From the NCBI GenBank assembly GCA_964618765.1, contig CAZUDZ010000002.1, forward strand, positions 3,166-64,128: a DNA stretch of 60,963 nt, given 5' to 3'. Shown here piece by piece: positions 6,545 to 60,963 of this stretch. Position 1 is the first letter of the stretch; every line of letters begins with the position of its first letter. Under the pieces are notes generated by a model. The model ran no database searches. It was given only the letters and a program-made list of their open reading frames with translations, and was not told the origin of the DNA. The translations under genes were made by a program, and so were the position numbers. The stretch comes from an uncultured Candidatus Saccharibacteria bacterium. GTDB taxonomy: Bacteria > Patescibacteriota > Dojkabacteria > SC72.

Positions 6545-8359
6545 CTATCCCCCATACATCTCCCCCAACTCCTTAATAGTCGTAGCCTCCGTTATACCCT
6601 TGTCTCTCCCCCATTCTACTAATCTAGGAAACCTTAAAGAAAATCCGTCACTACCTTTCTTTTTCGTAATCTCATCAGCCTCTACTGTAAACACTACCCT
6701 TGGTTCCACCCATACATCTGGAATTAACCAATCATCTGCTTTTACATTCTTAGGCTTCTCCTCCACAATGTCTCCCTTAAGAGAGGTATATATGGTTTTT
6801 AATTGCTCATCTGTAAATCCTGTACCTACATTACATACGGTCTCAAACAAATCTTCTTTTTCATTGTACGATGCCCCTAGAATCGAACCTACACCTAACT
6901 CACTTCTTCTACCAGAACCGAAGTTGTAGCCCACTACAACTAAATCCATGGTATCTACAAGGCCTTTTAACATAGACTTCTTAAGTTTTATCCATTCGTA
7001 ATTCCTAACCCCTGGTAGATATTCACCCTTAATTTGCTTAACTATGATGCCCTCTAGACCTAATTTTACTGCCCTGTCAAAGATTTCTCTTAACTCTTTT
7101 AAGTTTTTAACCTTCTTTGTCTCCTCAGTCTCTATACCCCCGTCGGTATTCATTTTCTCCAGTATCTCAAGCCTTTCATCAAGATCTTCTCCGAGCAAAA
7201 CATTACCATTTAAATACAGAAGATCAAATACCATAGCTTTTACAGGAACACTTCCTTGCATTTTCTTAACATTGTATTTCCTTCTCCTTTGCATTGTTTC
7301 TTGGAATGTTAAGAATTCTTCCTTCTCTGTATTCCAACCCAGCACTTCTGAATCCATTATGAATGACTCCTCTTTTACCTTTCTTGCCTGTTCTACTATC
7401 TCTGGAAACATCTCTGTTACGTCTTCTAAATTCCTCGTAAAAAGCCTTACTACATACTCTTCTTGTGGTGGATTTTCAAAGAGAGTGTTTTCATCACTCT
7501 CTTTAATATATTCCTGCCATATTGAATCTTTAGATTGAAAATCTTTCCTTCTAAATTTGTGTATCTGGCATCTAAGACCATCATACTTACTCTGTACAAA
7601 AACCGTATCTCCTAATCTCTCAAAAACCTCTTCGAAGGAAGATACTCTTTCTACTAATCGTGGGAGGATAGGTGTCCCTGGTTGTACTTTGACACTGTGT
7701 AGCTTCTCCATAACCTTTTCCTTTGGAGTATCTACAATTAAAGAACATATATATCCCATATCCGTATATGCTCCATATGCCCTCTCCATCTCCTCTTTCA
7801 TGCCTTTGTCACCCTGTACAACAAAAGAAAAAACATCTAGAAGAGTCTTACTGCTTAACCCAAACCTTAGGGAACCACACACTATTCTAGAAAAATACTT
7901 TGCTTCTAAAGGAGAAAGTTGTTTTAATGTTTCTGTAATTATCCTGTTTTTTACCTCTATTGATCCTGTTCCCTTCGCGTTAACTATCTGCCAAAGAATT
8001 TTATATATCTGTACTAAAGAGAGCTTCCCTGTCTTCTGCCCAAGTTCCCTTGAGTAGTATTCTAGCGTATCCCCGATATCTCCTAATTCTTCTCTCTTCT
8101 CCTTGGAATCAACTTCTAAACTTTTACTTTTTAAAAGCTTATTCAGAAGAGAGAGAAAACTTTTTTCAGAGTAATTAAATTCACTCCTTACAAAAGAAGG
8201 AGCTACACGACCAACAACGAGGTAGGAGAGAATTTGGGCTTCTTTAAGTTTTAGATCTTTGAAGAAATCTGCAAGAATTTGGGTCATTTCATTCCGAGAA
8301 GAAGTACCCTCTAAGGTATTAAAAACATTGGAAACCTGATCAAATGTCACCTTACTCAT
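6545..8359 (-). CDS. lig: ATP-dependent DNA ligase (archaeal/eukaryote-like architecture)
   Basis: N-terminal DNA-binding domain, motif I QSKYDGLRCQIH, IMDSEV, VFDLLY, EGIIVK, WIKLK, DLVVVG and the C-terminal OB-fold motif LRFPR. Confidence 0.95.
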   Translation of the reverse strand: MSKVTFDQVSNVFNTLEGTSSRNEMTQILADFFKDLKLKEAQILSYLVVGRVAPSFVRSEFNYSEKSFLSLLNKLLKSKSLEVDSKEKREELGDIGDTLEYYSRELGQKTGKLSLVQIYKILWQIVNAKGTGSIEVKNRIITETLKQLSPLEAKYFSRIVCGSLRFGLSSKTLLDVFSFVVQGDKGMKEEMERAYGAYTDMGYICSLIVDTPKEKVMEKLHSVKVQPGTPILPRLVERVSSFEEVFERLGDTVFVQSKYDGLRCQIHKFRRKDFQSKDSIWQEYIKESDENTLFENPPQEEYVVRLFTRNLEDVTEMFPEIVEQARKVKEESFIMDSEVLGWNTEKEEFLTFQETMQRRRKYNVKKMQGSVPVKAMVFDLLYLNGNVLLGEDLDERLEILEKMNTDGGIETEETKKVKNLKELREIFDRAVKLGLEGIIVKQIKGEYLPGVRNYEWIKLKKSMLKGLVDTMDLVVVGYNFGSGRRSELGVGSILGASYNEKEDLFETVCNVGTGFTDEQLKTIYTSLKGDIVEEKPKNVKADDWLIPDVWVEPRVVFTVEADEITKKKGSDGFSLRFPRLVEWGRDKGITEATTIKELGEMYGG

Positions 8360-8360
8360 A

Positions 8361-8777
8361 TTATTTCCCAGTAAATATATATTGCGTCGATTTTGTTGTC
8401 CCTTTCTGTGATACCAGACCTAACCCAACAAGCCTGTCCATATCTCTTCTAATTGTCCTAGTAGATACATCGGGAGCAAGAGAGTATATCTCAGCAGGAT
8501 CCATACTCCCCTCTTGTACAAGTCTCTCTAATATTTTTCTTTGTCTTAAGTTGAGATCTTCAAGAGGTAACTCTTTTTCTTCTGGTTTCTCTGTTATTTC
8601 TGTTTGAGGGGAATTTTTTACCCTATTCCTCTCCGATTTATACTTCTTTCCTAGTTGTTCACTTTTCTTACCCTCCCCCCGTTTCAAAAACATGATCAGA
8701 AAGAAGCCTCCTACCAAACCAAGAAGAGTTATAAAATTGAACAGAAGAGAATTGTTTTCCTTAGAGTCTGAATTCAT
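8361..8777 (-). CDS. Membrane-tethered DeoR-type winged-HTH protein
   Basis: N-terminal TM helix, then LNLRQRKILERL...VSTRTIRRDMDRLVGLGLV. Confidence 0.75.
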   Translation of the reverse strand: MNSDSKENNSLLFNFITLLGLVGGFFLIMFLKRGEGKKSEQLGKKYKSERNRVKNSPQTEITEKPEEKELPLEDLNLRQRKILERLVQEGSMDPAEIYSLAPDVSTRTIRRDMDRLVGLGLVSQKGTTKSTQYIFTGK

Positions 8778-8895
8778 AACATATTATATATCTATTTACC
8801 TCTTTTGTTAAACAGAGGAGATGAGAGAGTGTTAAAAACACCTAGAAAGACTTACTGGATACCACAGGAACGCCATTTCGGACTAAATACAGAGT

Positions 8896-11574
8896 TTAGG
8901 ATTTCAATTCGGCCATACTGTTTCCTACAGAGGAGTGTACAACTAGAGGGACATCCAAGGAAACTACATTCTCCATTATTTCTTCTACAATTTTAATAAA
9001 GCTCTCTGTATAATTCTTTTCTACCTCAAATATTAACTCATCGTGTATTTGTAGGAGTATATGGGCTTTCTCTTTGTATTCTTTCTCTATTACCTCATCT
9101 ATCTTGATCATTGCTAGCTTTACAATATCAGCTTCACTCCCCTGTATTGGCATGTTTACTGCTTCTCTCTGAGCTGCCCTAATCATCCTTATGTTTTTTG
9201 ATCTTAAACCCTTGATATGTCTTGTTGTTCCAAACATACTTTGTACATATCCTTTTTTGTATGCTTCTTTTTCTAACCCCCTAATATATTCCTCAACCCC
9301 TTTGTAGTGATCAAAATAGCTTTGTATATATTCTGATGCAACATCATTCTCTATACCAAGCATGCTAGCTAAACCGTAAGCTGTTTGCCCAAAGAGTATA
9401 CCGAAGTTTACTGTCTTACCCACACTTCTCTCCTCCTCAGTAACCTCCTCTATCTCCTTGTTTAACAAACGAGCTGCAGTAGACTTGTGAATATCTAAAT
9501 CATCATTGAAGTCCTTGATTAAAAGATCATCCTTAGATATATCTGCCATAATCCTTAACTCAATTTGGGAGTAGTCCATAGCGACAAACTTAAAGCCTTT
9601 CCTTGGGACAAAGGCTTTTCTTAACTCTTCTGCTCTCTTTCCTTTCAAAGGTAAGTTTTGCATATTTGGATTAGAGGAGGAGAATCTACCCGATGTTGTT
9701 CCTGTTTGATCAAACTCAGTATGTATTGAATTTTTTCCATCTTCAGATGCCATCTCCAAAAGAGGTGTAGTGTATGTTGTATACATCTTGTTTAATTCTC
9801 TGTATTCCAAAAGCTTTTCAATCATGGGATGAGCCCCCTTTAACTTCTGTAATACTGATTCTTTTGTAGAATTCTTTTTACTACCAGGAAGATCTAGTTC
9901 ATTAAAAAGTACATCAGAGAGCTGCTTAGGTGAATTAATATTGAATTCGTGCCCTACACTGTCATATATTTCCTGCGTCAACTTCTCCGTATCTTCCTTT
10001 AACTCCTCGTTTAGATCCTTAAGATATTTTACATCTACCCCGATCCCTCTTCCTTCCATTTTACGAAGAATTTTAGATATGGGGAGCTCTACCTCTCTTA
10101 AAACATTAATGAAATACCTCTCCTTTACCCTAAATACCTGCTCTATGCTAAATTTCGTGTACTCATACAGCTCGATATCATTTGCTTTTTTAATCTGAGT
10201 CTCTCTAATCTCTTCTACGGTATCTAAAACTTTAGTAAGGTCAGTAGGAGCTATCTTTTCAGGAAGAATACCAGAGGAGTAATCAAAGGAAAGATCTTTC
10301 AAAGTATATCCTCTCCTTTCAGAATTAATGAGATGGCCAAAAAGTCCGATATCAAACAAATTCCCAAAAGAAACCTCGTCATTTCGTGAAACGGTATTTT
10401 CTAGGTTATAAAAGATGGTTTCACAGTCGATAGGCTTTGTGCAACTACTTTTCTTGGTTAGGATGTCCTCTTTCTTCCCCGAGTTGTCCACAATCCTTGC
10501 CATAACAAAACTTTTGTCTGTTAGAGATTCTTTTTTCTCTATATATGCCAATATTAATTTTTTAGCACTTTCAAGTTTTTTCGTAAAATCTCCCTGAGTC
10601 GTCCATTCTATCTGAGGAGATGTACCAGTTGAGAAAATATCTAACTGACTTGTACTGCTTACTTTATCATTACCCTCTATCTCATCTAATCTCGGAATTA
10701 AAGATTTAAAAGAAAACTCTTTAAATATCTCTAACACCCTCTTTTTATCAAAATCTCTTAAAAGACATTCCTCTAGATGTACTGCTATATCTACCTCCTG
10801 CTCAATCTTTGCTAGTTTCCTGCTTAATTCAGCCTGCTCTACCCCCTCCAGAAGTAGGTCTGCCTGTCTTTTCTTAATATCTTTAAGGTTACGATATATG
10901 CCATCTAAATCTCCATACTTCTCTAACAGCTCCAGAGCTGTTTTCTGCCCTATTCCCTTCACACCTGGGATGTTGTCCGAAGAATCCCCTGCCATGGCCT
11001 TGAAATCTACTAACTGTTCGGGATACAGACCTAAATATTCAAATGTCTTCTCCCTGTCGTATGCAACTAGATCCTTGAAACTTCCTGCGGGTAAAGATAC
11101 CTTTACATGTTCATTAACTAATTGTAATAGGTCCCTGTCCCCACTTAATATGTACAATTCAATATTTTGATCACTCCATTTCTTTTCGGACACATACTTA
11201 GCAATGGTCCCTAGGATATCATCTCCTTCAAAACCATCCTTCTTAATTACTGGAATACTGAAAGCCTTAAGAACTTCTTCTACTAGGGGAAATTGGTCTA
11301 TGAGGGATTGGTCCGTAGGTTTGCGTGTAGCTTTGTAATCCACGAACTCAAGATGCCTGAAAGTAGGCTTATGAGTATCAAAGGAGCAGAGTACATATTT
11401 GGGCTCAAATGTTTTCAATGCGGAAAGTAGCATGACAGTAAAGCCATATACTGCATTTACCTGTAACCCATCCTCTGTTTGCAGAGTTGAAGGGTAAGCA
11501 TGAAAGGCCCTGTGTACTATGGCGTTTGCATCTATTGCAAGGAACCTATCCTTGCCATTGCTAGGTAAAGTCAT
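8896..11574 (-). CDS. polA: DNA polymerase I
   Basis: 5'-3' exonuclease (AIDANAIVHRAFHA, FEGDDILGT); polymerase motifs TGRFSS..PNMQN, DYSQIELR, KTVNFGILFG and LQIHDELIF. The 3'-5' exonuclease region looks degenerate. Confidence 0.98.
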   Translation of the reverse strand: MTLPSNGKDRFLAIDANAIVHRAFHAYPSTLQTEDGLQVNAVYGFTVMLLSALKTFEPKYVLCSFDTHKPTFRHLEFVDYKATRKPTDQSLIDQFPLVEEVLKAFSIPVIKKDGFEGDDILGTIAKYVSEKKWSDQNIELYILSGDRDLLQLVNEHVKVSLPAGSFKDLVAYDREKTFEYLGLYPEQLVDFKAMAGDSSDNIPGVKGIGQKTALELLEKYGDLDGIYRNLKDIKKRQADLLLEGVEQAELSRKLAKIEQEVDIAVHLEECLLRDFDKKRVLEIFKEFSFKSLIPRLDEIEGNDKVSSTSQLDIFSTGTSPQIEWTTQGDFTKKLESAKKLILAYIEKKESLTDKSFVMARIVDNSGKKEDILTKKSSCTKPIDCETIFYNLENTVSRNDEVSFGNLFDIGLFGHLINSERRGYTLKDLSFDYSSGILPEKIAPTDLTKVLDTVEEIRETQIKKANDIELYEYTKFSIEQVFRVKERYFINVLREVELPISKILRKMEGRGIGVDVKYLKDLNEELKEDTEKLTQEIYDSVGHEFNINSPKQLSDVLFNELDLPGSKKNSTKESVLQKLKGAHPMIEKLLEYRELNKMYTTYTTPLLEMASEDGKNSIHTEFDQTGTTSGRFSSSNPNMQNLPLKGKRAEELRKAFVPRKGFKFVAMDYSQIELRIMADISKDDLLIKDFNDDLDIHKSTAARLLNKEIEEVTEEERSVGKTVNFGILFGQTAYGLASMLGIENDVASEYIQSYFDHYKGVEEYIRGLEKEAYKKGYVQSMFGTTRHIKGLRSKNIRMIRAAQREAVNMPIQGSEADIVKLAMIKIDEVIEKEYKEKAHILLQIHDELIFEVEKNYTESFIKIVEEIMENVVSLDVPLVVHSSVGNSMAELKS

Positions 11575-14385: not shown

Positions 14386-14459
14386 TGGTGGGAACTGGAA
14401 TCGAACCAGCGACCTTGGGTTTATGAATCCCATGCTCTAACCATCTGAGCTATCCCACC
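14386..14459 (-). tRNA. tRNA-Met (CAU), probably elongator
   Basis: GGTGGGATAGCTCAGATGGTTAGAGCATGGGATTCATAAACCCAAGGTCGCTGGTTCGATTCCAGTTCCCACCA folds as a cloverleaf with paired G1-C72. Met versus Ile2 cannot be fixed from the anticodon alone. Confidence 0.9.
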
Positions 14460-14499
14460 AAAGACACACCATTATATCAAAGAGCATATTAAAAAGGTA

Positions 14500-15060
14500 T
14501 TAATTAGCTCTCCCTGAATACTCCCCACTCTCTGTGTTAATCCTTACGGTATCTCCTTTTTTAATAAAGAGAGGAACATGAACCCTGTATCCAGTTTCTA
14601 AAGTAACCTCCTTTGTTGCAGAGTTAGAAGTATTCCCCTTGACCGCCTCTGATGCATCGGTTACTTTCAAATCTACAGCAGGGTTTTCTTTTACAGTTAA
14701 TACTTTGCCCTCGTAGGTCATCACAAGGTGCGAGGATCCTTCTTTGAGAAAATTTACATAATCTTCTAGTATCTCTCTAGATATTGTAACTGTTTCGTAA
14801 GTCTGGGTATCCATAAAGTAGGACTTATCTCTGTCTGAATAGAGAAACTGCATTTCTTTTGTCTCTGGGTGAATATACTCTACCTTCGTACCTGCCTTAA
14901 CAGTCTCTGTTAGAACTTGACCATTATCTAGTGCTTTTTTCTTCATAATAATCAGTCCTCCCTGCCTTCCCTGTGTTTTTAATTTTCTATCTATCAAATG
15001 AAATACTCTTCCCTCTTCAAGAAGATACATTCCCTTTACTGGTTGATCTGTCAGTGGCAT
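14500..15060 (-). CDS. efp: Elongation factor P
   Basis: 186 aa with MQFLYSD, FMDTQTYE, KGNTSNSATKEVTLETG and VPLFIKKGD.VRINTESGEY. Confidence 0.95.
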   Translation of the reverse strand: MPLTDQPVKGMYLLEEGRVFHLIDRKLKTQGRQGGLIIMKKKALDNGQVLTETVKAGTKVEYIHPETKEMQFLYSDRDKSYFMDTQTYETVTISREILEDYVNFLKEGSSHLVMTYEGKVLTVKENPAVDLKVTDASEAVKGNTSNSATKEVTLETGYRVHVPLFIKKGDTVRINTESGEYSGRAN

Positions 15061-15156: not shown

Positions 15157-15231
15157 TGGTTGCGGGGGTCGGATTCGAACCGACGACCTCCAGGTTATGA
15201 GCCTGACGAGCTTCCACTGCTCTACCCCGCG
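15157..15231 (-). tRNA. Initiator tRNA-fMet (CAU)
   Basis: CGCGGGGTAGAGCAGTGGAAGCTCGTCAGGCTCATAACCTGGAGGTCGTCGGTTCGAATCCGACCCCCGCAACCA; C1-A72 mismatch; CCA encoded. Confidence 0.95.
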
Positions 15232-15857: not shown

Positions 15858-16745
15858 GTGCCATCAATTAAAAATCCGAGCTTTGAAGAGAAGCAAAATG
15901 CATTTGTCCAAGACTTGGAGTCCAAGGGGCGTGCGGAATCAACTATAATTGCATACTCAAAAGATATTGAACAACTTCTAAATTTTCTATCCAAAGAAGG
16001 AATCGCAGATTTAGAAAAAGTCACAACTGAGGTGTTAGAGAAATATAAACAAAACCTACAGGACAATAACTACACTCCTAAAAGTGTCTCTAGAAAAATT
16101 AACAGCACTCGAACCTTTTTCAAATATCTTCTGGAAAATCAGCTCATAAAAGACAATCCTTCAGAGAAATTGGCTCACCCTAAATTTAAGATGAAGCCAC
16201 CTAGGGTCTTAACAGAGATGGAGTATCGTGCCCTAAGAGATGTTAGTAGAGTAGATGTCAGACTATACTCCATAGTAGAAATCCTCCTTCAAACTGGAGT
16301 TAGGATAGGAGAACTAGCTGCTTTAACATTAGATGATATAAGACAGTCAAAGGATGGGAAAATTGATTTTCTGTACATCAAGCCAGCTGGAAGCCATCCT
16401 GCTCGTAAAGTTCCATTAAATAAATCAGCAAAAAAAGCATTAGATGAATATCTTGAAGTTAGACCTGAAACAGAGGATGACACCATCTTTATTACAAAAA
16501 ACGGTAGACCCCTCCTAGTAAGAAATATCCGAACCGCTATAGATAAGGCTTTTGAGAAAGCTAGAATTAAGAATGCCAAAGTTAATGATCTTAGAAACAC
16601 CTTTATAGCACACCACTTAGCTAACGGGGTAAGTTTAGTAACCGTATCCAAATTAGTAGGCCACAAGAGATTGTCTACTACAGAAAAGTATCTCAATCTT
16701 GTTAAAATGCAAGTAGAAGATGACAAAAGCCTAAAAGAACTCTAA
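15858..16745 (+). CDS. XerC/XerD-like tyrosine recombinase
   Basis: SAM-like N-domain (AESTIIAYSKD, PKSVSRKINSTRTFFKYL), catalytic R in GVRIGEL, NDLRNTF and LVGHKRLSTTEKY. Confidence 0.9.
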   Translation: MPSIKNPSFEEKQNAFVQDLESKGRAESTIIAYSKDIEQLLNFLSKEGIADLEKVTTEVLEKYKQNLQDNNYTPKSVSRKINSTRTFFKYLLENQLIKDNPSEKLAHPKFKMKPPRVLTEMEYRALRDVSRVDVRLYSIVEILLQTGVRIGELAALTLDDIRQSKDGKIDFLYIKPAGSHPARKVPLNKSAKKALDEYLEVRPETEDDTIFITKNGRPLLVRNIRTAIDKAFEKARIKNAKVNDLRNTFIAHHLANGVSLVTVSKLVGHKRLSTTEKYLNLVKMQVEDDKSLKEL

Positions 16746-16798
16746 ACCTCTATATTGACAGATTGCTTATACTTAATCGCCACTACTGAATGAAAGAA

Positions 16799-16872
16799 TG
16801 GGAATAGGTGGACTCGAACCACCGACCACGGCTTTATAAGAACCGCGCTCTAACCACCTGAGCTATATTCCC
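16799..16872 (-). tRNA. tRNA-Ile (anticodon UAU)
   Basis: GGGAATATAGCTCAGGTGGTTAGAGCGCGGTTCTTATAAAGCCGTGGTCGGTGGTTCGAGTCCACCTATTCCCA. All stems pair, and the loop CT-TAT-AA gives anticodon TAT with discriminator A73. Confidence 0.9.
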
Positions 16873-16906
16873 AAAACTAGAAGATTTTACCAGAATATAC
16901 GAGTTT

Positions 16907-19423
16907 TTAGAAGCCCATTGGCGGGAATCCCATGCTTTGAGGTTGAGGTTCATCTTCTTTTTTATCTAATTGGGACCTAGTGCGAATATCATCATTTACA
17001 ACCTGAAGATCCCTACCATATTTAATCCTAGATATTTGTTTAATTATCTTCCCTATCTCCTTATTCACAGGCATATCAAAACCTGATTCTGGATAAGCAG
17101 GTCCATAAAGAGCATTTAGAGAAAATGGAGAAGGATATGAGCCTTTTGTTAAAAGTTTAGTGTAATAGCTCCCTATACCTTGGTTTACCATATCCATAGC
17201 AGTAATATATGATTCAAACTGTGTCTCTAGGAATTCTGCATCCTCTGCACTACATCTTGCAATAAAGAGAGAACCTACATTCCCAAAAACAGCACTTTTT
17301 ATATCCTCTGGCAACTGCCCTATATATTGATGCGCTAGTGTAAGATTCAACCTGTATTTTCTTGCCTCAGATAGTATAGAGTTAAATTCTTCTGTCGCAA
17401 AATTTTGGAACTCATCAGCGTAAAAGAAAAAGTCTCTTCTTTCCTCTTCTGGAATATCTTCCCTACTCAGCGCTGCAGCCAACATCTTCTGTACAAGAAG
17501 TAATCCTAAGAAAGACATATTCTCATCCCCTATCTTTCCTTTGGAAAGATTCACTATCAATATTTTCCCATTATCCATAATCTCACGGAAATCGAAAGAA
17601 GATTTAGATTGGCCAATTATATTTCGGATAGCAAGGTTAGTAGTAAACTTGTCAAATTTTGAGATGAAGTAAGTCAGAGCCTCTGACTTTGTCTTCTTAT
17701 CTGTTTTTGCTACTTGATCTGTCCAATACCTTCTAACAAGATCATCCTTTACCAAAGGCAACCAATAATTCATAACCCACTCCTCATCTTGTAGAATTCT
17801 TACAACCTCTATCAAAGTTGAGTCTGGTTTTGACATTGCAGTAAGCATTGAATTCCTTACAGCCTGCTGAAATGCAGGTCCTGCATAACCTTGATTATGT
17901 GGATCAAACAACCTTATCAAAAGAGCAATAAAACTATTTACAATCTGGTGTTTATGCTGTTCATTGTAATACTCCATGATATTAATACCAAAAGGCCTAT
18001 CAAAATCCCCAGCATCAAAATATATTACATCATCCGCCCTGTCCGCAGGAATCCTCTCCAAAAGCATCTCTGCAGCCTGACCGTGTGGATCTATGAAAGC
18101 ACAGCCATCGCCATTATAAATGTCCTGAATCATCATCCTAACCATCAACCAAGATTTACCAGTACCCGTCTGCCCCAAAATATATGCATGCCTTCTTCTA
18201 TCATCCCTCTCAAAACAAATTATCTTCTTCTTGCCTCTGAAATAATTATTCCCTAACCATACAGTATCCCGAGAGTTAATATCTGAACTAATATCATTGT
18301 CAGCTATTAATTCCTTTGATAATAACCACTTAATATTCGGTGTCGAGATATCCTTGTTTGGAAAGTGATACAAAGCGGCCAATTCTGCCAAATTAAAAAC
18401 AGTCTTCTCGTCCTGAGGACTTCTTCTGTATATAACATCATAAAGGAAACTCTTCTCTTTACCCTTTGGATTCTTCCTCTTCTTCAACCTATTAATCCCC
18501 GGATTACTATACTGATCAAAAGCCCCTATTATGTTATCCAGATGCATCTTTGCAATAGCCTTCTCAGGGGCACTAGTAACAATCCGTATCTCAGCCATCA
18601 ACCCTGGCTTGGAAATTTTCCTACTAATAGCCTCTAACTTCTCCTGGGAGACATTAATCTTACTCTTCTCTGGATCCGTATTGTTATTCTGAACCTTCTG
18701 AACAAACCCTTCCCCATTCTTCTGCCAACCGTTACCTACTGGAGCAACAATCAACTGTACTAAAGCACCCTCTCCCTCAGACATCTTACTTAAAGTACTC
18801 AAAACATTCGCCATCGGGTCACCAGTAAAATCTTCTGCAACTCTAATGGGGCAGTAAAGATCCTCATCCAAACCTAATTGTGCGTAAGCCATCTCACTGT
18901 TAGGAGCAAAAATATTGTATTCATCTACCACAGAGACATTCGCATCCTGATATGATCCGAGTATTTGTTTTTCTACCAAATCCGCAATCTTCCTTGGGCT
19001 GTGTACAAAAAATCTAATCTCACCAGGTAATCCCACCATCTCAAAACTAACACAATTACTGACACTAAATTTCTCTGCAAGACCTTCCCCCTTTCCCCCA
19101 ATACCATAAAGGTTAGCAAACATCTTTTCCGCTACCCCTATCTCTTCCTCATTGTTCCTTGGAACCCTAACCTCCATTAAAACCCCCTCAGCAGCCTTCT
19201 CATTCCTGTCTTTCTTCTTAAGTTTCTTTTGAACAAAAATGAAACCCCCTACTAAAAACCCAACCAAGAGAAGAAAGAAGATAATCCAGCCCCATGGGAT
19301 ATCAATTTCCTTTTTGTCATACAGTTGCTTGTGTGTGTCAGATGGATATTCCACTGCGGAACCTGTTTCTATCTCAGACTCAGGTTTAGTAGGCCCTATT
19401 TGACAGTAGATGTACTCGTTCAT
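16907..19423 (-). CDS. Membrane-anchored VirB4/TraG/HerA-superfamily ATPase (CPR type)
   Basis: N-terminal TM helix; DRRRHAYILGQTGTGKS (Walker A), FIDPHG, FFYADEFQNF (Walker B), SEARKYRLNLTLAHQY. Confidence 0.85.
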   Translation of the reverse strand: MNEYIYCQIGPTKPESEIETGSAVEYPSDTHKQLYDKKEIDIPWGWIIFFLLLVGFLVGGFIFVQKKLKKKDRNEKAAEGVLMEVRVPRNNEEEIGVAEKMFANLYGIGGKGEGLAEKFSVSNCVSFEMVGLPGEIRFFVHSPRKIADLVEKQILGSYQDANVSVVDEYNIFAPNSEMAYAQLGLDEDLYCPIRVAEDFTGDPMANVLSTLSKMSEGEGALVQLIVAPVGNGWQKNGEGFVQKVQNNNTDPEKSKINVSQEKLEAISRKISKPGLMAEIRIVTSAPEKAIAKMHLDNIIGAFDQYSNPGINRLKKRKNPKGKEKSFLYDVIYRRSPQDEKTVFNLAELAALYHFPNKDISTPNIKWLLSKELIADNDISSDINSRDTVWLGNNYFRGKKKIICFERDDRRRHAYILGQTGTGKSWLMVRMMIQDIYNGDGCAFIDPHGQAAEMLLERIPADRADDVIYFDAGDFDRPFGINIMEYYNEQHKHQIVNSFIALLIRLFDPHNQGYAGPAFQQAVRNSMLTAMSKPDSTLIEVVRILQDEEWVMNYWLPLVKDDLVRRYWTDQVAKTDKKTKSEALTYFISKFDKFTTNLAIRNIIGQSKSSFDFREIMDNGKILIVNLSKGKIGDENMSFLGLLLVQKMLAAALSREDIPEEERRDFFFYADEFQNFATEEFNSILSEARKYRLNLTLAHQYIGQLPEDIKSAVFGNVGSLFIARCSAEDAEFLETQFESYITAMDMVNQGIGSYYTKLLTKGSYPSPFSLNALYGPAYPESGFDMPVNKEIGKIIKQISRIKYGRDLQVVNDDIRTRSQLDKKEDEPQPQSMGFPPMGF

Positions 19424-19867: not shown

Positions 19868-20311
19868 TTATATCATATATTTTCTTTTCTGGTGTAGTAA
19901 ATCCCTCTCCATATCTCTTTCTTTCTCACGAGCCTTCTTTTCATACCTCTTCTTCCCCCTTCCATAACCTACCTCTACTTTCACTTTCCCTCTGGTCGTA
20001 TACACAGACAAAGGAATCAGGGTTTGACTACTCTGTTTTAAATTACTTTCAATCGACACCAACTCCTTTTTCTTAACCAGAAGCTTCCTTGATCTTCTAG
20101 GATCATAATTTTCACTTCCATCAAATTTGTACCTAGAAATATCTGCATTGATTAACCAAAGCTCCCCACCAAGGATCCTTACATAGGCATTGTTTAAGTT
20201 AATCCTCCCCGCTTTAACGGATTTGACCTCTGCCCCTGTTAAAACGACCCCTGCCTCAAAAGGATCAGAGATGTCATAATTGAAATATGCTTTTTTATTC
20301 CTAATTTTCAT
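19868..20311 (-). CDS. smpB: SsrA-binding protein
   Basis: NKKAYFNY, EAGVVLTGAEVKS, RSRKLL and GRGKKRYEKKAREKERD. Confidence 0.97.
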   Translation of the reverse strand: MKIRNKKAYFNYDISDPFEAGVVLTGAEVKSVKAGRINLNNAYVRILGGELWLINADISRYKFDGSENYDPRRSRKLLVKKKELVSIESNLKQSSQTLIPLSVYTTRGKVKVEVGYGRGKKRYEKKAREKERDMERDLLHQKRKYMI

Positions 20312-25771: not shown

Positions 25772-26128
25772 TTACTTGGATAAGAAATCTATTGACACTC
25801 TTAATACTGCAAATATGACTGATATCACTATCAAACCTATTATTGCCCAAGTAAGTGTCCCTTGAGCCTGCTTAACCCTACTGGGATCCCCTGAGGATAT
25901 AATCCACATATATCCTCCTTGGATTATGAATACTAAAGCAATTAGACCCGCAACTGGAAACAGGTACCCTAAAATCTTGTCAATAAGGGGAGCAAGTTCT
26001 CCCAATCCAGGAGGAGGACCGGAAGTTTCAGAGCCTGAAGGGACATTGGTTGGAGGTAGAGGAGCAGAATAGACAGGGAAGGCTAAAATGAGAGGAAGTA
26101 CATAATATATTTTTGTTAGAAATTTCAT
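25772..26128 (-). CDS. VirB2/TrbC-like pilin (5th of 5)
   Basis: Signal-like N-terminus (VYSA) and IIQGGYMWIISSGDPSRVKQAQGTLTWAIIGL. Confidence 0.8.
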   Translation of the reverse strand: MKFLTKIYYVLPLILAFPVYSAPLPPTNVPSGSETSGPPPGLGELAPLIDKILGYLFPVAGLIALVFIIQGGYMWIISSGDPSRVKQAQGTLTWAIIGLIVISVIFAVLRVSIDFLSK

Positions 26129-26130
26129 CT

Positions 26131-26406
26131 CTATTTAGCTATTAATATTTTCTCTATTATAAACTCAATAATGGTAGGAGACAAGAACACTATTACTAAC
26201 CCTAGTAGAGAAAAAGCTAAAGACCTTGTAGCCTCCTTGACTTTCTCTTCATCCCCCATTGAAAGAATATATTTAAATCCAGCAAGAATTAAAGACACAA
26301 CTACAACCAACACAGATAAGGACATAGCTAGATTTACCACAAAAAATACGAATTCTGATAAATTCCCAAAGCCTGTGTTATTAAAGGTATCTAAGTGTAT
26401 AAACAT
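26131..26406 (-). CDS. VirB2/TrbC-like pilin (4th of 5)
   Basis: LILAGFKYILSMGDEEKVKEATRSLAFSLLGL. Confidence 0.8.
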   Translation of the reverse strand: MFIHLDTFNNTGFGNLSEFVFFVVNLAMSLSVLVVVVSLILAGFKYILSMGDEEKVKEATRSLAFSLLGLVIVFLSPTIIEFIIEKILIAK

Positions 26407-26471
26407 AAGAATCTAATTAATAAATAACCAAGGCAGTGTTATCTCCTTTAACAGCTCCTTTCTTCCCCTTC

Positions 26472-26837
26472 TTATGCTCCGGTCTGAAGAACATTGTTAA
26501 GAACAAACTGTACTAAGATTACAGAAATGAAACAAATTACTAATCCTACAATAGCATAAGTTAATGTCTTTGTAGCCTTCTCAATTTTCTGCTCATCTCC
26601 GGCAGCTGTAATGTATGAATATCCAGCAGCAATTAAGACAACTACACATACTAAAGCTGCTAGAAGAATTACCATGTTTATAACTCTTTTAGCAAGTCCC
26701 ATTACATCTTCACCTTCGTTTAAGGGACTCTTTGGAAGAAATTTTCCTAAACCAGTATCCTGTGCCTTAACAATTCCTGTCCAATACAGAGTGGATACAG
26801 ACCCTGCTACTACTCCTAATGCTTTAGAAATTTTCAT
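26472..26837 (-). CDS. VirB2/TrbC-like pilin (3rd of 5)
   Basis: Signal-like N-terminus (VKAQ) and LIAAGYSYITAAGDEQKIEKATKTLTYAIVGL. Confidence 0.85.
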   Translation of the reverse strand: MKISKALGVVAGSVSTLYWTGIVKAQDTGLGKFLPKSPLNEGEDVMGLAKRVINMVILLAALVCVVVLIAAGYSYITAAGDEQKIEKATKTLTYAIVGLVICFISVILVQFVLNNVLQTGA

Positions 26838-26919
26838 ATATTTTCTATTTATATATTATATTAATGACACAATTATATATAATGATGTGAAAAGTTGCAA
26901 CAGTATATCTAAAACCAAA

Positions 26920-27294
26920 TTAGACCGGTCGAGGGAGCGATCTTCCTTCAGGTGTTGGGTTTGGCATAGGAGCTTCATTCTTAGAATCATTCCCGCTGTC
27001 TCCATTGTTCTGTAAGACATCAAAAACGAAACCCACTATCATTCTTGCTAGAAAAACTATTACCATACCAACAATAGCACCTGTTATGACTTTCTGAGCC
27101 CTCTGAACCTTCTCGGGATCTCCTGCAGAGGTTATAAACATGTATCCTGCTACAACTATAAGTACTACTGCAACAAAGACGGAAAAGTAAATGAAAAAAT
27201 CTATAGCAACCCAAATTCTATCCTTAATTAAGGAATCAACAGAAGCATTTTCCCACTTTATCAATAAGTCGCCTAGACCACTTATAGAAGTCAT
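26920..27294 (-). CDS. VirB2/TrbC-like pilin (2nd of 5)
   Basis: IVVAGYMFITSAGDPEKVQRAQKVITGAIVGM, plus a polar C-terminal tail. Confidence 0.85.
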   Translation of the reverse strand: MTSISGLGDLLIKWENASVDSLIKDRIWVAIDFFIYFSVFVAVVLIVVAGYMFITSAGDPEKVQRAQKVITGAIVGMVIVFLARMIVGFVFDVLQNNGDSGNDSKNEAPMPNPTPEGRSLPRPV

Positions 27295-27296
27295 AG

Positions 27297-40996: not shown

Positions 40997-41413
40997 TGGA
41001 GACGACGGGAATTGAACCCATGTCCAAAAGCTTTGTCTAGTACCATGTACAAACATAGTTAACCCTGTATAGTAAGATATTTCTAGAAAGGTTAACAAAA
41101 AGAAATATCCCCTCGGTTATATATCTAAGTTAGTTACCCTACCGACCAAATAATTAACCGTACCCTGATAACGACTATCTATATCCCCCTATCAGAGAAA
41201 GAAGAAATAGACACTAGCCAAAATAATTAGCTAGACCTTATGCAAAGTTAAATGCATAAGCAGGAACTGCAAAAGCAGCCCTTAACTTAGCACCTAAATC
41301 ATTGACAAAGGCGACAATCTTATTTTCTACACTTAAGTTGTGTGTTGAATAACGAATCAACAAACGGTTTGTGATAACTAAACGCAATCTTCTGTCGAAT
41401 GCCTTACGTCCCC
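40997..41413 (-). ncRNA. ssrA: tmRNA
   Basis: 5' GGGGACGTAAGGCATTCGAC pairs with 3' GGGTTCAATTCCCGTCGTCTCCA. Tag ORF at 41330-41238 ends AFNFA*. TATAAT at 41440-41435. smpB is in the window. Confidence 0.93.
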
Positions 41414-58888: not shown

Positions 58889-58930
58889 GAGTGTTGCTTG
58901 GTATGATATAATGGGCATTACTCGTAGGAT

Positions 58931-60963
58931 ATGAAAGAATTACCAAAAGCTTACAATTCCGATGCTGAAGTCGATATATACTCTCTGTGGAGCGATTCTG
59001 GACTCGCAAACCCAGATAAAATGGAGGAATATCTTGAGGAAAAGGGTTTGCAAGTTAAAGAGCCCTTTACGATAACACTTCCCCCTCCCAATGCGAATGG
59101 GAATTTACATCTAGGCCATGTATGTGGCTACTCCTTCCACGATGTAATGGGTAGATATATGAGAATGACAGGCCATCCTACCCTACTTCTTCCTGGAAAA
59201 GATCATGCCGGGATTCAAACAGAAAGCGTTTTTACTAAGCTGCTTAAAAAGCAGGGCAAAACAAAACAAGAGTTAGGAAGAGAGAAATTCTATGAAGAAG
59301 CATACAAGTTCTGTATGCAAAACGTTGAGAATGCTAGAAAACAAGAAAAGAGAATAGGACTTTCAGCAGACTATAGTAGGGAGCTCTTTACTTTGGATCC
59401 TAGGTTAACAACAATTGTCTACGAAACATTCTTCCAGATGTTTAAAGATGAGATGATATATCGAGATAAACGCATCATTAACCAATGTCCCAACTGTATG
59501 ACAGCCCTTGCAGATATCGATGTGGAGCATGAAGAAACCAGAGGAATTTTCGCATATATAGTATATCCATTTGTTGAAAAAGAGGATAGGAAATTAGCCA
59601 AAGAGAAACTAGGAGTAGAAGGAATTACGATAGCAACTACAAGGCCAGAAACAATGCTAGGAGATACAGCTGTTGTTGTTAATCCTGAAGACCAAAGATA
59701 CAAAGAGTTTGTTGGTAAAAAAGTGCTTCTCCCAATAGTGGAAAGGGCAATCTCTGTGATAGCTGATCAGAATACAGATATGGAAATAGGTACAGGTGCA
59801 GTTAAGGTTACACCTGCACACTCTCCAGTGGATTTTGAAATTGGTAAAAAACATAATCTGCAGATTGTTAATGTAATTAACGAAGAAGGCAAAATGAGTG
59901 GAGATATCCCTGAGAGATTTAAAGGGATGGAAACGGTTGAATGTTCTAAGGCTCTTTGTAAAGAGTTGGAAAGTCAAGGTTTGTTGATCAAAATAGAAGA
60001 TATTAAACACGAGGTAACCGTATGTGAAAGATGTAGAACCCCGATAGAGCCAATTATTTCCAATCAGTGGTATTTGAATGTCTCTTCTCTGGCAAAGCAG
60101 GCTTTAAGAGAGATTAAAAAAGGAAGCCTTAAGGTGTATCCAAAAGGACAGCAGAAAGCTCTTGGACACTTTTTTGAAAACATCGAACCTTGGTGTATAT
60201 CTCGCCAGCTTTGGTGGGGTCAAAGAATTCCAATTTGGTATAGCGGAGGGAAGAAATTACATGATTGGTTACAAGAAAATGAGGAGAAGACAGTTAAAGA
60301 TTATGAAGAAGAAACGGGATTAAAGGCTGAAGGAACAGGAGAAGTTCGAGCAGTTGGAGAAATGCCTAAACCTGAGAATGGAGAAATTTGGGAGGAAGAA
60401 ACAGATGTCTTGGACACTTGGTTTAGCTCAGGACAATGGCCATTCTCGACCCTGCAAGCTTTACAAGCAACGGATTTTAAAAAATATTACCCTACTCAAA
60501 TGATGATTCATGCAAGAGATATTCTCTTCTGGTGGTCAGCTAGAATGGTCATGATGGGTCTATACAAAACAAACGAACTGCCTTTTTCAGATATCTTCTT
60601 AACAGGAATGATTTTAGCCCCCGATGGCTCTAAGATGTCTAAATCAAAGGGTAACAGTGTAGAACCAAAGGAAATTTTTGAGAAGTATGGGGCAGATGCT
60701 TTAAGACTTTGGTATTACTCAGATGCTTTGCCCGGAGCAAATGCTCCCGTAAGAGAGGAAAAGATTAAAGGGAACAGGAACTTTGTGAATAAGGTATGGA
60801 ACGCGAGCAGGTTTGTAATTATGAATATAGATAAAAGTGAAATCAACGATATTGCTAAGATTAGAGAGGAAGAAATAGGAGATACGGATAGAGTTAAGTT
60901 AACAAAAGAACATATTAAGAAGATCAGTCAATATATTGAAAAGTATCAGTTTAATTTGGGAGC
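58931..60963 (+). CDS. valS: Valyl-tRNA synthetase, partial (runs off right edge)
   Basis: Read by hand: MKELPKAY..., PPPNANGNLHLGH (HIGH), PGKDHAGI, ATTRPETMLGD, WCISRQLWWG, DVLDTWFSSG and KMSKSKGN. Confidence 0.97.
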   Translation, partial: MKELPKAYNSDAEVDIYSLWSDSGLANPDKMEEYLEEKGLQVKEPFTITLPPPNANGNLHLGHVCGYSFHDVMGRYMRMTGHPTLLLPGKDHAGIQTESVFTKLLKKQGKTKQELGREKFYEEAYKFCMQNVENARKQEKRIGLSADYSRELFTLDPRLTTIVYETFFQMFKDEMIYRDKRIINQCPNCMTALADIDVEHEETRGIFAYIVYPFVEKEDRKLAKEKLGVEGITIATTRPETMLGDTAVVVNPEDQRYKEFVGKKVLLPIVERAISVIADQNTDMEIGTGAVKVTPAHSPVDFEIGKKHNLQIVNVINEEGKMSGDIPERFKGMETVECSKALCKELESQGLLIKIEDIKHEVTVCERCRTPIEPIISNQWYLNVSSLAKQALREIKKGSLKVYPKGQQKALGHFFENIEPWCISRQLWWGQRIPIWYSGGKKLHDWLQENEEKTVKDYEEETGLKAEGTGEVRAVGEMPKPENGEIWEEETDVLDTWFSSGQWPFSTLQALQATDFKKYYPTQMMIHARDILFWWSARMVMMGLYKTNELPFSDIFLTGMILAPDGSKMSKSKGNSVEPKEIFEKYGADALRLWYYSDALPGANAPVREEKIKGNRNFVNKVWNASRFVIMNIDKSEINDIAKIREEEIGDTDRVKLTKEHIKKISQYIEKYQFNLG

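Follow-up and report, generated by a model that had tools for sequence, protein, structure and literature searches.

The window analysed here, a stretch of 60,963 nucleotides of contig CAZUDZ010000002.1 (assembly GCA_964618765.1), contains on its minus strand, at 16799..16872, a gene of 74 nucleotides for an isoleucine tRNA with anticodon TAT (UAU in the transcript) and discriminator base A73, in which the terminal CCA is not encoded. The assignment draws on ARAGORN, Rfam and orthologues: ARAGORN, which reports eight RNA genes in the window, calls tRNA-Ile(tat) at 16798-16873(-), and the Rfam model RF00005 matches 16799-16872(-) over its full length (model positions 1-71) with 68.2 bits (gathering score 29, E = 9.2e-13). 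Together with an initiator and an elongator-type tRNA of anticodon CAT, the gene forms a cluster of AUA and AUG readers within 2.5 kb, among core genes and next to ftsH. It is most likely a separately transcribed, 'Ile3'-type tRNA-Ile(UAU), the dedicated AUA reader of a Candidatus Dojkabacteria bacterium, that is, of a member of the Candidate Phyla Radiation (CPR).

Read along its own strand, the gene runs from the acceptor strand GGGAATA through TA, a D stem GCTC/GAGC enclosing AGGTGGTTA, a single G, an anticodon stem CGGTT/AGCCG enclosing the loop CTTATAA, TGGTC, and a T stem GGTGG/CCACC enclosing TTCGAGT, to the acceptor strand TATTCCC and the final A. The four stems, of 7, 4, 5 and 5 base pairs, are fully paired, with a single U30-G40, and U8, A14, G18G19, U33 and the GTTCRA motif of the T loop are all in place. 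The original prediction, made from the letters of the window, had described a complete cloverleaf with a TAT anticodon and A73, without giving its strand, and the ARAGORN call, the Rfam score and the paired stems confirm it. Marks of an isoleucine acceptor are present as A35-U36, A37 (the t6A site), A38 and A73. The minor identity pairs used by isoleucyl-tRNA synthetase (IleRS) of the E. coli type are C4:G69, U12:A23 and C29:G41; the window tRNA has U12:A23, and A4:U69 and G29:C41 are found in its clade. We have very little doubt that this is a functional tRNA-Ile that reads AUA. The letters that follow the gene are TTC (16796-16798), and CCA is encoded in the orthologues of loci L090, L159, L125 and L201.

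Upstream of the gene, on the same strand at 16884..16892, lies an extended -10 box, TGGTAAAAT, recognised by direct reading and by its conservation. Its parts are TG (16892-16891), G (16890) and TAAAAT (16889-16884), and it ends 11 nucleotides before position 1 of the tRNA, so that the TG-G-TAAAAT motif announced in the original prediction is indeed there. A generic sigma-70 promoter scan did not flag this -10 box because the -35 region is poor, its best candidate (TTCTAA) matching three of six positions. A motif TGGTA(A/G)AAT is nevertheless found 11 to 17 nucleotides upstream of the tRNA in 12 loci (the window, L090, L159, L120, L125, L160, L201 and L204-L208) whose flanking sequences have diverged; the box therefore appears as the phylogenetic footprint of an extended -10 promoter, and on this ground of conservation we propose that it acts as a promoter.

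Several observations bear on whether T34, the base on which the whole question turns, is real. An independent Logan assembly (L001, from SRR8925724) is 99.93% identical to the window over 8.1 kb and contains an identical tRNA, as do the metagenome loci L090 and L102; T34 is thus the same in three independent assemblies. An ENA contig (L002) is 100% identical and covers the neighbouring region, not the tRNA. Orthologues in five further loci (L159, L120, L125, L160 and L201) match the window tRNA at 67 to 70 of its 74 positions, with the TAT unchanged, and the substitutions are compensatory: A5:U68 has become G5:C68, and in the T stem G:C has become A:U. In all, TAT is invariant in the 12 diverged orthologous loci. 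Since the same tRNA occurs in independent assemblies, and since the anticodon, the compensatory changes and the box are kept over 12 loci, T34 is not an assembly error.

The surroundings of the gene are conserved as well. The common order is a gene for a 756-residue protein, smpB, a VirD4-like ATPase gene, tRNA-Ile(TAT), xer on the opposite strand, divIC, tRNA-fMet, efp, tRNA(CAT), ftsH and polA. Across relatives, protein identity is 65 to 72% for FtsH, 72 to 93% for Xer and about 60 to 93% for the conserved neighbours, the least conserved being at about 30%, and Xer-like homologues at 80 to 85% identity, on contigs of up to 0.76 Mb, are annotated by NCBI as Candidatus Dojkabacteria bacterium, so that the proteins around the tRNA assign the window to this group. 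The same synteny is present in four assemblies, GCA_012842045.1, GCA_050950125.1 (contig JBMNHA010000001.1 of 750,790 bp), GCA_018056375.1 (JAGPFQ010000001.1, 644,853 bp) and GCA_028706305.1, and in ENA ERZ27249281, and each of these five loci, of about 21 kb and all from the same region, has a tRNA-Ile(tat), a tRNA-fMet and an elongator tRNA(CAT). Because synteny and tRNAs recur in this way, we consider that tRNA-Ile(TAT) is fixed in this part of the Dojkabacteria (WS6, within CPR/Patescibacteria).

The codon that this tRNA would read is in heavy use. Over 49 open reading frames of the window, AUA accounts for 553 of 1284 isoleucine codons (43%, or 33 per 1000 codons), ahead of AUU (520), and is the most used isoleucine codon, in agreement with the earlier remark that ATA codons are common here. 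The AUA/AUU ratio, 1.06, falls inside the range of A3/T3 ratios of the four-fold degenerate families (0.49 to 1.53); there is therefore no avoidance of AUA, which must have an efficient decoder. As for its meaning, an alignment of the window FtsH with 80 homologues places AUA codons at columns that are isoleucine in 80/80, 76/80 and 69/80 sequences. The pooled residues at AUA sites of FtsH (I 0.39, V 0.18, L 0.17) have the profile of AUU sites, whereas AUG sites differ (M 0.34). AUA thus means isoleucine in this organism.

Two tRNAs of anticodon CAT were predicted to lie within 2.5 kb of the isoleucine gene, an initiator and a probable elongator, and they are found 1.6 and 2.3 kb away. The former, an initiator tRNA-fMet with encoded CCA (15157..15231, minus strand, from ARAGORN and Rfam), has a C1xA72 mismatch and the D-stem pairs A11:U24 and G12:C23; these two pairs are complete discriminators of fMet according to Silva et al. 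(PMC1635315). One of the three canonical G:C pairs of its anticodon stem, G29:C41, is replaced by A29:U41. The latter, at 14386..14459 on the minus strand, directly upstream of ftsH (Rfam, 68.7 bits), is of the elongator type and most likely a tRNA-Met. This distinction matters because an anticodon CAT may also denote tRNA-Ile2, whose indicators are G3, A3, C70 or T70, with C4:G69 and C5:G68 very frequent, while C3:G70 is usual for Met (PMC1635315). The elongator-type tRNA has U3:A70, G4:C69 and G5:C68, with a pyrimidine-purine orientation at 3:70, and displays none of these Ile2 indicators. In six other, CPR-like loci (L099, L103, L108, L146, L148 and L151), the non-initiator CAT tRNA beside tRNA-Ile(TAT) has the same D arm and C3:G70. 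By exclusion and by homology, therefore, the second CAT tRNA of the window is very probably the elongator tRNA-Met.

A peculiarity of the elongator-type tRNA(CAT) is a non-Watson-Crick pair at 31:39 (A.A, A.G or A.C), which closes the lower end of the anticodon stem, often together with U32. It is seen in the window, in L003 (4807-4880), L125, L159, L201 and L204-L208, as well as in the six loci just cited. TruA, which makes pseudouridine at positions 38-40, is present in 5 CPR genomes versus 958 non-CPR genomes (PMC6744442).

In most bacteria the reading of AUA relies on TilS, the enzyme that places lysidine on tRNA-Ile2(CAU). No TilS Pfam domain was found in the 50 open reading frames of at least 98 residues in the window. 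A hidden Markov model of TilS, built from 52 FtsH-locus sequences and E. coli TilS, matched in 56 of 80 FtsH loci of diverse bacteria (L004-L082, at about 8000-10000), almost always directly upstream of ftsH. The same model gave no match in the window, none in the five named Dojkabacteria loci, and no TilS in the 813,543 bases that surround the metagenomic tRNA-Ile(TAT) genes. The slot upstream of ftsH is occupied in Dojkabacteria by tRNA-Met and efp (14386-15060 in the window). No tilS-ftsH linkage was found in the Patescibacteria loci L010, L053 and L057, which says nothing about TilS itself, since CPR may have no such linkage at all. Weak matches to the model were rejected: those in L137 (9940-10692, minus strand) and L123 (5460-6275, minus strand) are QueC, and the one in L154 is an NAD synthase. 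In L123 and L137, two related contigs of about 50% GC, this QueC, a PP-loop ATPase of the queuosine pathway, is encoded directly beside tRNA-Ile(TAT).

A much broader view is given by the census of protein families of Meheust et al. 2019 (PMC6744442, Supplementary Data 1), which covers 2321 CPR and 1198 non-CPR genomes. Flagged there as 'depleted', the TilS family (K04075, PF01171) is present in 123 of the 2321 CPR genomes versus 866 of the 1198 others, a point that the main text of that paper does not discuss; no other family of the census table bears PF01171 or K04075. For comparison, a class-I synthetase family counts 2302 CPR and 1182 non-CPR genomes, and among other tRNA-modifying enzymes the figures (CPR versus non-CPR) are 5 versus 897 for MnmG, 1495 versus 948 for MnmA and 1942 versus 995 for TsaD. 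The original prediction held that this lineage reads AUA without TilS. At the level of the clade this finds good support, in the fixation of TAT, in the depletion of TilS in the census and in its absence from the loci searched; the organism's own genome has been seen over 61 kb.

How far does such a tRNA extend beyond the Dojkabacteria? We scanned JGI/ENA metagenome contigs with a pattern in which the loop CTTATAA, the D arm and some of the T arm were set, whereas every variable stem could take any sequence. At least 120 stretches were recovered, at least 119 of them with a complete tRNA; with the window, 120 copies represent at least 107 distinct sequences. Among the matches listed, A73, which the pattern does not constrain, is invariant in the 107 distinct sequences, and C4:G69 is present in 90 of them. 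In the same set, stem cells are paired at 98.8%, covariation amounts to 0.681, whereas shuffles reach 0.158 and slid controls no more than 0.101, and double substitutions have occurred at 15 of the 21 pairs, namely all pairs of the acceptor and anticodon stems and three of the T stem. The pattern undercounts, because the orthologues of L204-L208 have D-loop variants that fall outside it. The earlier statement that UAU tRNA-Ile is a rare exception among bacteria therefore does not survive for uncultured bacteria and CPR, given at least 119 further genes and 107 distinct sequences with that of the window.

Several matches lie on contigs of 0.37 to 0.98 Mb; many are unplaced and of low GC. Among the matches listed, the frequent neighbours of tRNA-Ile(TAT) are either tRNA-Val(GAC) and ValRS (valyl-tRNA synthetase), or the pair of fMet and Met tRNAs. 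On a contig of 976 kb (L116), the homologues of ValRS are named Candidatus Falkowbacteria and Patescibacteria group, and in this and other Falkowbacteria-like loci (L144, L198 and others) ValRS adjoins a tRNA-Ile(TAT)-tRNA-Val(GAC) pair. Locus L087 contains tRNA-Ile(GAT) and tRNA-Ile(TAT) in one cluster: the two have the Ile body in common and differ in every variable stem, which indicates that the GAT and TAT paralogues are old. The pattern is also matched in 39 viral contigs of IMG/VR (L210-L248), one of which, a metagenome-assembled genome (MAG) of a giant virus, has two copies. Dense, phage-like tRNA arrays occur in several of the metagenome matches (L094, L164, L186, L187, L194 and L202).

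The synthetase that would charge the tRNA is represented by a single case, as only one IleRS was found near a CPR tRNA-Ile(TAT). In L189 (5436-8384, minus strand), 1.4 kb from the tRNA, a type-2 IleRS of 983 residues is encoded, with a DUF5915 C-terminus and no zf-FPG_IleRS domain; in the same search the control, E. coli IleRS, shows zf-FPG_IleRS. The L189 enzyme also has fairly high scores with the MupA and MupB models, below their cut-offs, and its contig is of 35.5% GC. A candidate in the window itself, a class-I synthetase at 58928-60961 on the plus strand that phmmer proposed as IleRS, was rejected: it is the N-terminal part (678 residues) of ValRS, in a reading frame that is open at the end of the window, and the organism's IleRS is therefore encoded outside the window.

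The window is chromosomal, as it contains dnaA, dnaN, rnpA, yidC, jag, polA, ftsH, efp, smpB, tmRNA and RNase J genes. On one side of the tRNA lies our synteny anchor, a XerC/D-like tyrosine recombinase of 295 residues (15858..16745, plus strand; Pfam Phage_integrase with a SAM-like N-terminal domain). On the other, as a conserved upstream neighbour, a VirD4/HerA-like ATPase is encoded (16907..19423, minus strand; Pfam T4SS-DNA_transf, DUF87 and TrwB_AAD_bind), which is 67 to 78% identical to the copies of relatives, DUF8128 being recorded in the orthologues. Four tandem paralogues of T4SS-pilin (PF18895) lie at 25772-27644 on the minus strand; being conserved across Dojkabacteria assemblies, these pilins and the ATPase look core rather than mobile. 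Elsewhere in the window, an ATP-dependent DNA ligase of the archaeal/eukaryotic type (6545-8359, minus strand) adjoins polA, and the tmRNA gene (40997-41413, minus strand), with a tag of 30 residues, VENKIVAFVNDLGAKLRAAFAVPAYAFNFA, is about 21 kb from smpB (19868-20311, minus strand).

Taken together, these data lead us to regard it as likely that the genome has neither TilS nor tRNA-Ile2(CAU) and that AUA is read by tRNA-Ile(UAU). Decoding would then proceed as in Mycoplasma mobile, Bifidobacterium and Neorickettsia. IleRS would charge the tRNA by way of U34-A35-U36, t6A37 and A73, and U34 would pair with the A of AUA. Reading of AUG as isoleucine would be prevented by competition from the elongator tRNA-Met encoded nearby, and possibly also by the ribosome. 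An xm5-type modification of U34 is unlikely, because MnmG is almost absent from CPR, where TsaD, the enzyme for t6A37, is on the contrary common. The original prediction called the anticodon 'unmodified-type', which goes beyond what DNA letters show and which the scarcity of MnmG supports indirectly; the adaptations of IleRS and ribosome that it asked for are taken over from the M. mobile work.

The main rival explanation is redundancy: tilS and tRNA-Ile2(CAU) would be present elsewhere in the genome, and the UAU tRNA would be an additional reader serving the heavy use of AUA. Such a coexistence is documented in Lactobacillus casei, Lactobacillus plantarum, Cyanothece and Ferrimonas, which have a tRNA-Ile(TAT) as here and retain both tilS and Ile2(CAU) (PMC3575796). 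It is also found in our own material: a TARA ocean contig (L110, 3401-4841) has, 1.4 kb from its tRNA-Ile(TAT), an Ile2-like tRNA(CAT) with acceptor strand GGGCCTG, the pairs G3:C70, C4:G69 and C5:G68 and a normal A31:U39, so that both routes to AUA can coexist in one genome. Other points also weigh against the loss of the TilS system or the role given to the UAU tRNA. The negative result for TilS spans the 61-kb window, part of a contig of 136,268 bp, and the stretches of about 21 kb from relatives, and tilS and a third CAT tRNA could lie elsewhere. The census works by protein family and on MAGs, so that a very divergent TilS could escape it, and it does find TilS in 123 CPR genomes, without telling whether Dojkabacteria are among them. 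The elongator CAT tRNA has U3:A70, not the C3:G70 that is canonical for Met, hence its assignment by exclusion, and the isoleucine tRNA of the window carries A4:U69 in place of the IleRS element C4:G69. Finally, tRNA-Ile(TAT) is missing from this site in L003, the nearest of the more distant relatives (identity 52% for FtsH and 64% for Xer), where tsaD abuts xer; L003 is one syntenic relative obtained from an FtsH contig scan that returned mostly unrelated phyla, through the conserved AAA motif. Redundancy appears unlikely to us all the same: TilS occurs in only about 5% of CPR genomes and in none of the Dojkabacteria sequences examined, nor in the 813 kb around at least 119 other TAT tRNAs, both local CAT tRNAs are without Ile2 signatures, and the usual slot of tilS upstream of ftsH is filled by tRNA-Met and efp.

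Decoding by the UAU tRNA without TilS leaves room for another variant, in which U34 would be modified in some other way (2-thiolation, pseudouridine, 2'-O-methylation or a new modification) that restricts the tRNA to AUA; the label 'unmodified-type' would then be wrong whether or not TilS is present. MnmA is common in CPR, with the 1495 genomes given above, and the window encodes methyltransferases of the SpoU family and of FtsJ-like type whose targets are unassigned; nothing, however, links these to tRNA-Ile(TAT). MnmA, for its part, normally acts on the Glu, Gln and Lys tRNAs, which have U35. A modified UAU anticodon has been raised for Mycoplasma suis, and the minor tRNA-Ile of eukaryotes has a pseudouridine-A-pseudouridine anticodon (PMC3575796), but M. 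mobile copes with an unmodified U34, and MnmG is found in 5 CPR genomes. On balance we find such a modification somewhat doubtful. That the tRNA might be the cargo or the integration target of a mobile element or prophage is suggested by the Phage_integrase-family and T4SS coupling-protein-like genes on either side of it, by the 39 IMG/VR contigs with the same body pattern and by the several phage-like tRNA arrays. The XerC/D-type recombinase is, however, syntenic with divIC, tRNA-fMet, efp, ftsH and polA in all relatives, including the tRNA-less L003, the order of the ATPase gene, smpB and the downstream genes is kept across Dojkabacteria assemblies, and there is no compositional break; this conserved synteny leads us to reject a mobile origin as highly improbable. 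An artefact or pseudogene, whether a GAT or CAT tRNA whose position 34 was wrongly sequenced or assembled, or a relic without expression, has practically no chance of being the explanation and is rejected too, because the gene is replicated: it is identical in independent assemblies, with TAT in 12 orthologues, compensatory changes, the box and a high Rfam score.

The mechanism favoured here, AUA reading by tRNA-Ile(UAU) without lysidine, is already known, but uncultured bacteria seem to use it far more widely than published accounts suggest. In the survey of Taniguchi et al. 2013 (PMC3575796), nine species from three clades had a TAT gene and no tilS; the tRNAscan-SE 2.0 paper lists 17 such bacterial genomes (PMC8450103), textbooks regard bacterial tRNA-Ile(UAU) as a rarity, and a preprint of 2026 still speaks of 'rare cases'. 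The literature that we searched held no paper tying tilS or lysidine to CPR lineages, and none on tRNA-Ile(UAU) in Dojkabacteria. Whether much of CPR normally decodes AUA in this way, with tRNA-Ile(UAU) and independently of TilS, is a question on which we stop just short of a positive answer; the evidence comes from Dojkabacteria, from a group resembling Falkowbacteria and from many unplaced contigs of low GC. If it does, the UAU state could be ancestral, corresponding to the stage of Taniguchi's model that resembles the last universal common ancestor, rather than repeatedly derived.

Reading AUA as isoleucine and AUG as methionine is one of the classic weak spots in the genetic code. The fixation of the gene in Dojkabacteria, more than 100 distinct homologues and a census poor in TilS and MnmG suggest that throughout an entire radiation AUA, in many cases the commonest isoleucine codon, is decoded by a simple U34 tRNA. 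If this is true, the rule that lysidine serves nearly all bacteria breaks down in a radiation that accounts for much of bacterial diversity, and a large natural sample becomes available for asking how IleRS and the ribosome stop AUG from being read as isoleucine. The annotation of CAT tRNAs in CPR MAGs is also concerned, as there may be no Ile2 to find. The matter bears as well on whether lysidine arose after the divergence of CPR, and TilS, which is discussed as a broad antibacterial target, would be irrelevant to such organisms.

One of the closest known systems is that of M. mobile, in which the lack of tilS and of tRNA-Ile2(CAT), the unmodified U34, Arg865 of IleRS1 and the discrimination of AUA from AUG by the ribosome are all experimental findings (Taniguchi et al. 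2013, PMC3575796). The present organism would resemble it in having a TAT tRNA-Ile in a small AT-rich genome, in reading AUA without lysidine, as we infer here, and in that tRNA-Met can compete for AUG. It differs in belonging to the unrelated CPR lineage and in being known from its genes, and the IleRS of L189 is of type 2, not type 1. Bifidobacterium and Neorickettsia have no tilS, a tRNA-Ile(TAT) and an IleRS of the eukaryotic type (PMC3575796), so that tRNA-Ile(UAU) stands in place of Ile2(CAU); a type-2 IleRS is likewise encoded near the CPR TAT tRNA of L189. Unlike in these few genera, the trait appears to be spread over a large radiation in CPR.

A laboratory parallel exists in Bacillus subtilis, where a change of G34 to U in tRNA-Ile1 suppresses the loss of tilS and sustains the decoding of AUA (Fabret 2011; Kohrer 2014, PMC3919564). 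There, as here, the UAU tRNA is built on a canonical body like that of tRNA-Ile1 (D arm GCUCAGGUGGUUAGAGC, T arm); the suppressor, however, arose by mutation of a single member of a set of gene copies, whereas the CPR gene is an old, fixed paralogue. In archaea, tRNA-Ile3(UAU) is known from Nanoarchaeum equitans and Korarchaeum cryptofilum (cited in PMC8450103). Ultra-small lineages with reduced genomes would thus have exchanged a system based on a modified C34 for a UAU tRNA in both cases, with TiaS given up there and TilS here. The domain and the lost enzyme are nevertheless different, and any likeness of DPANN to CPR is no more than an analogy.

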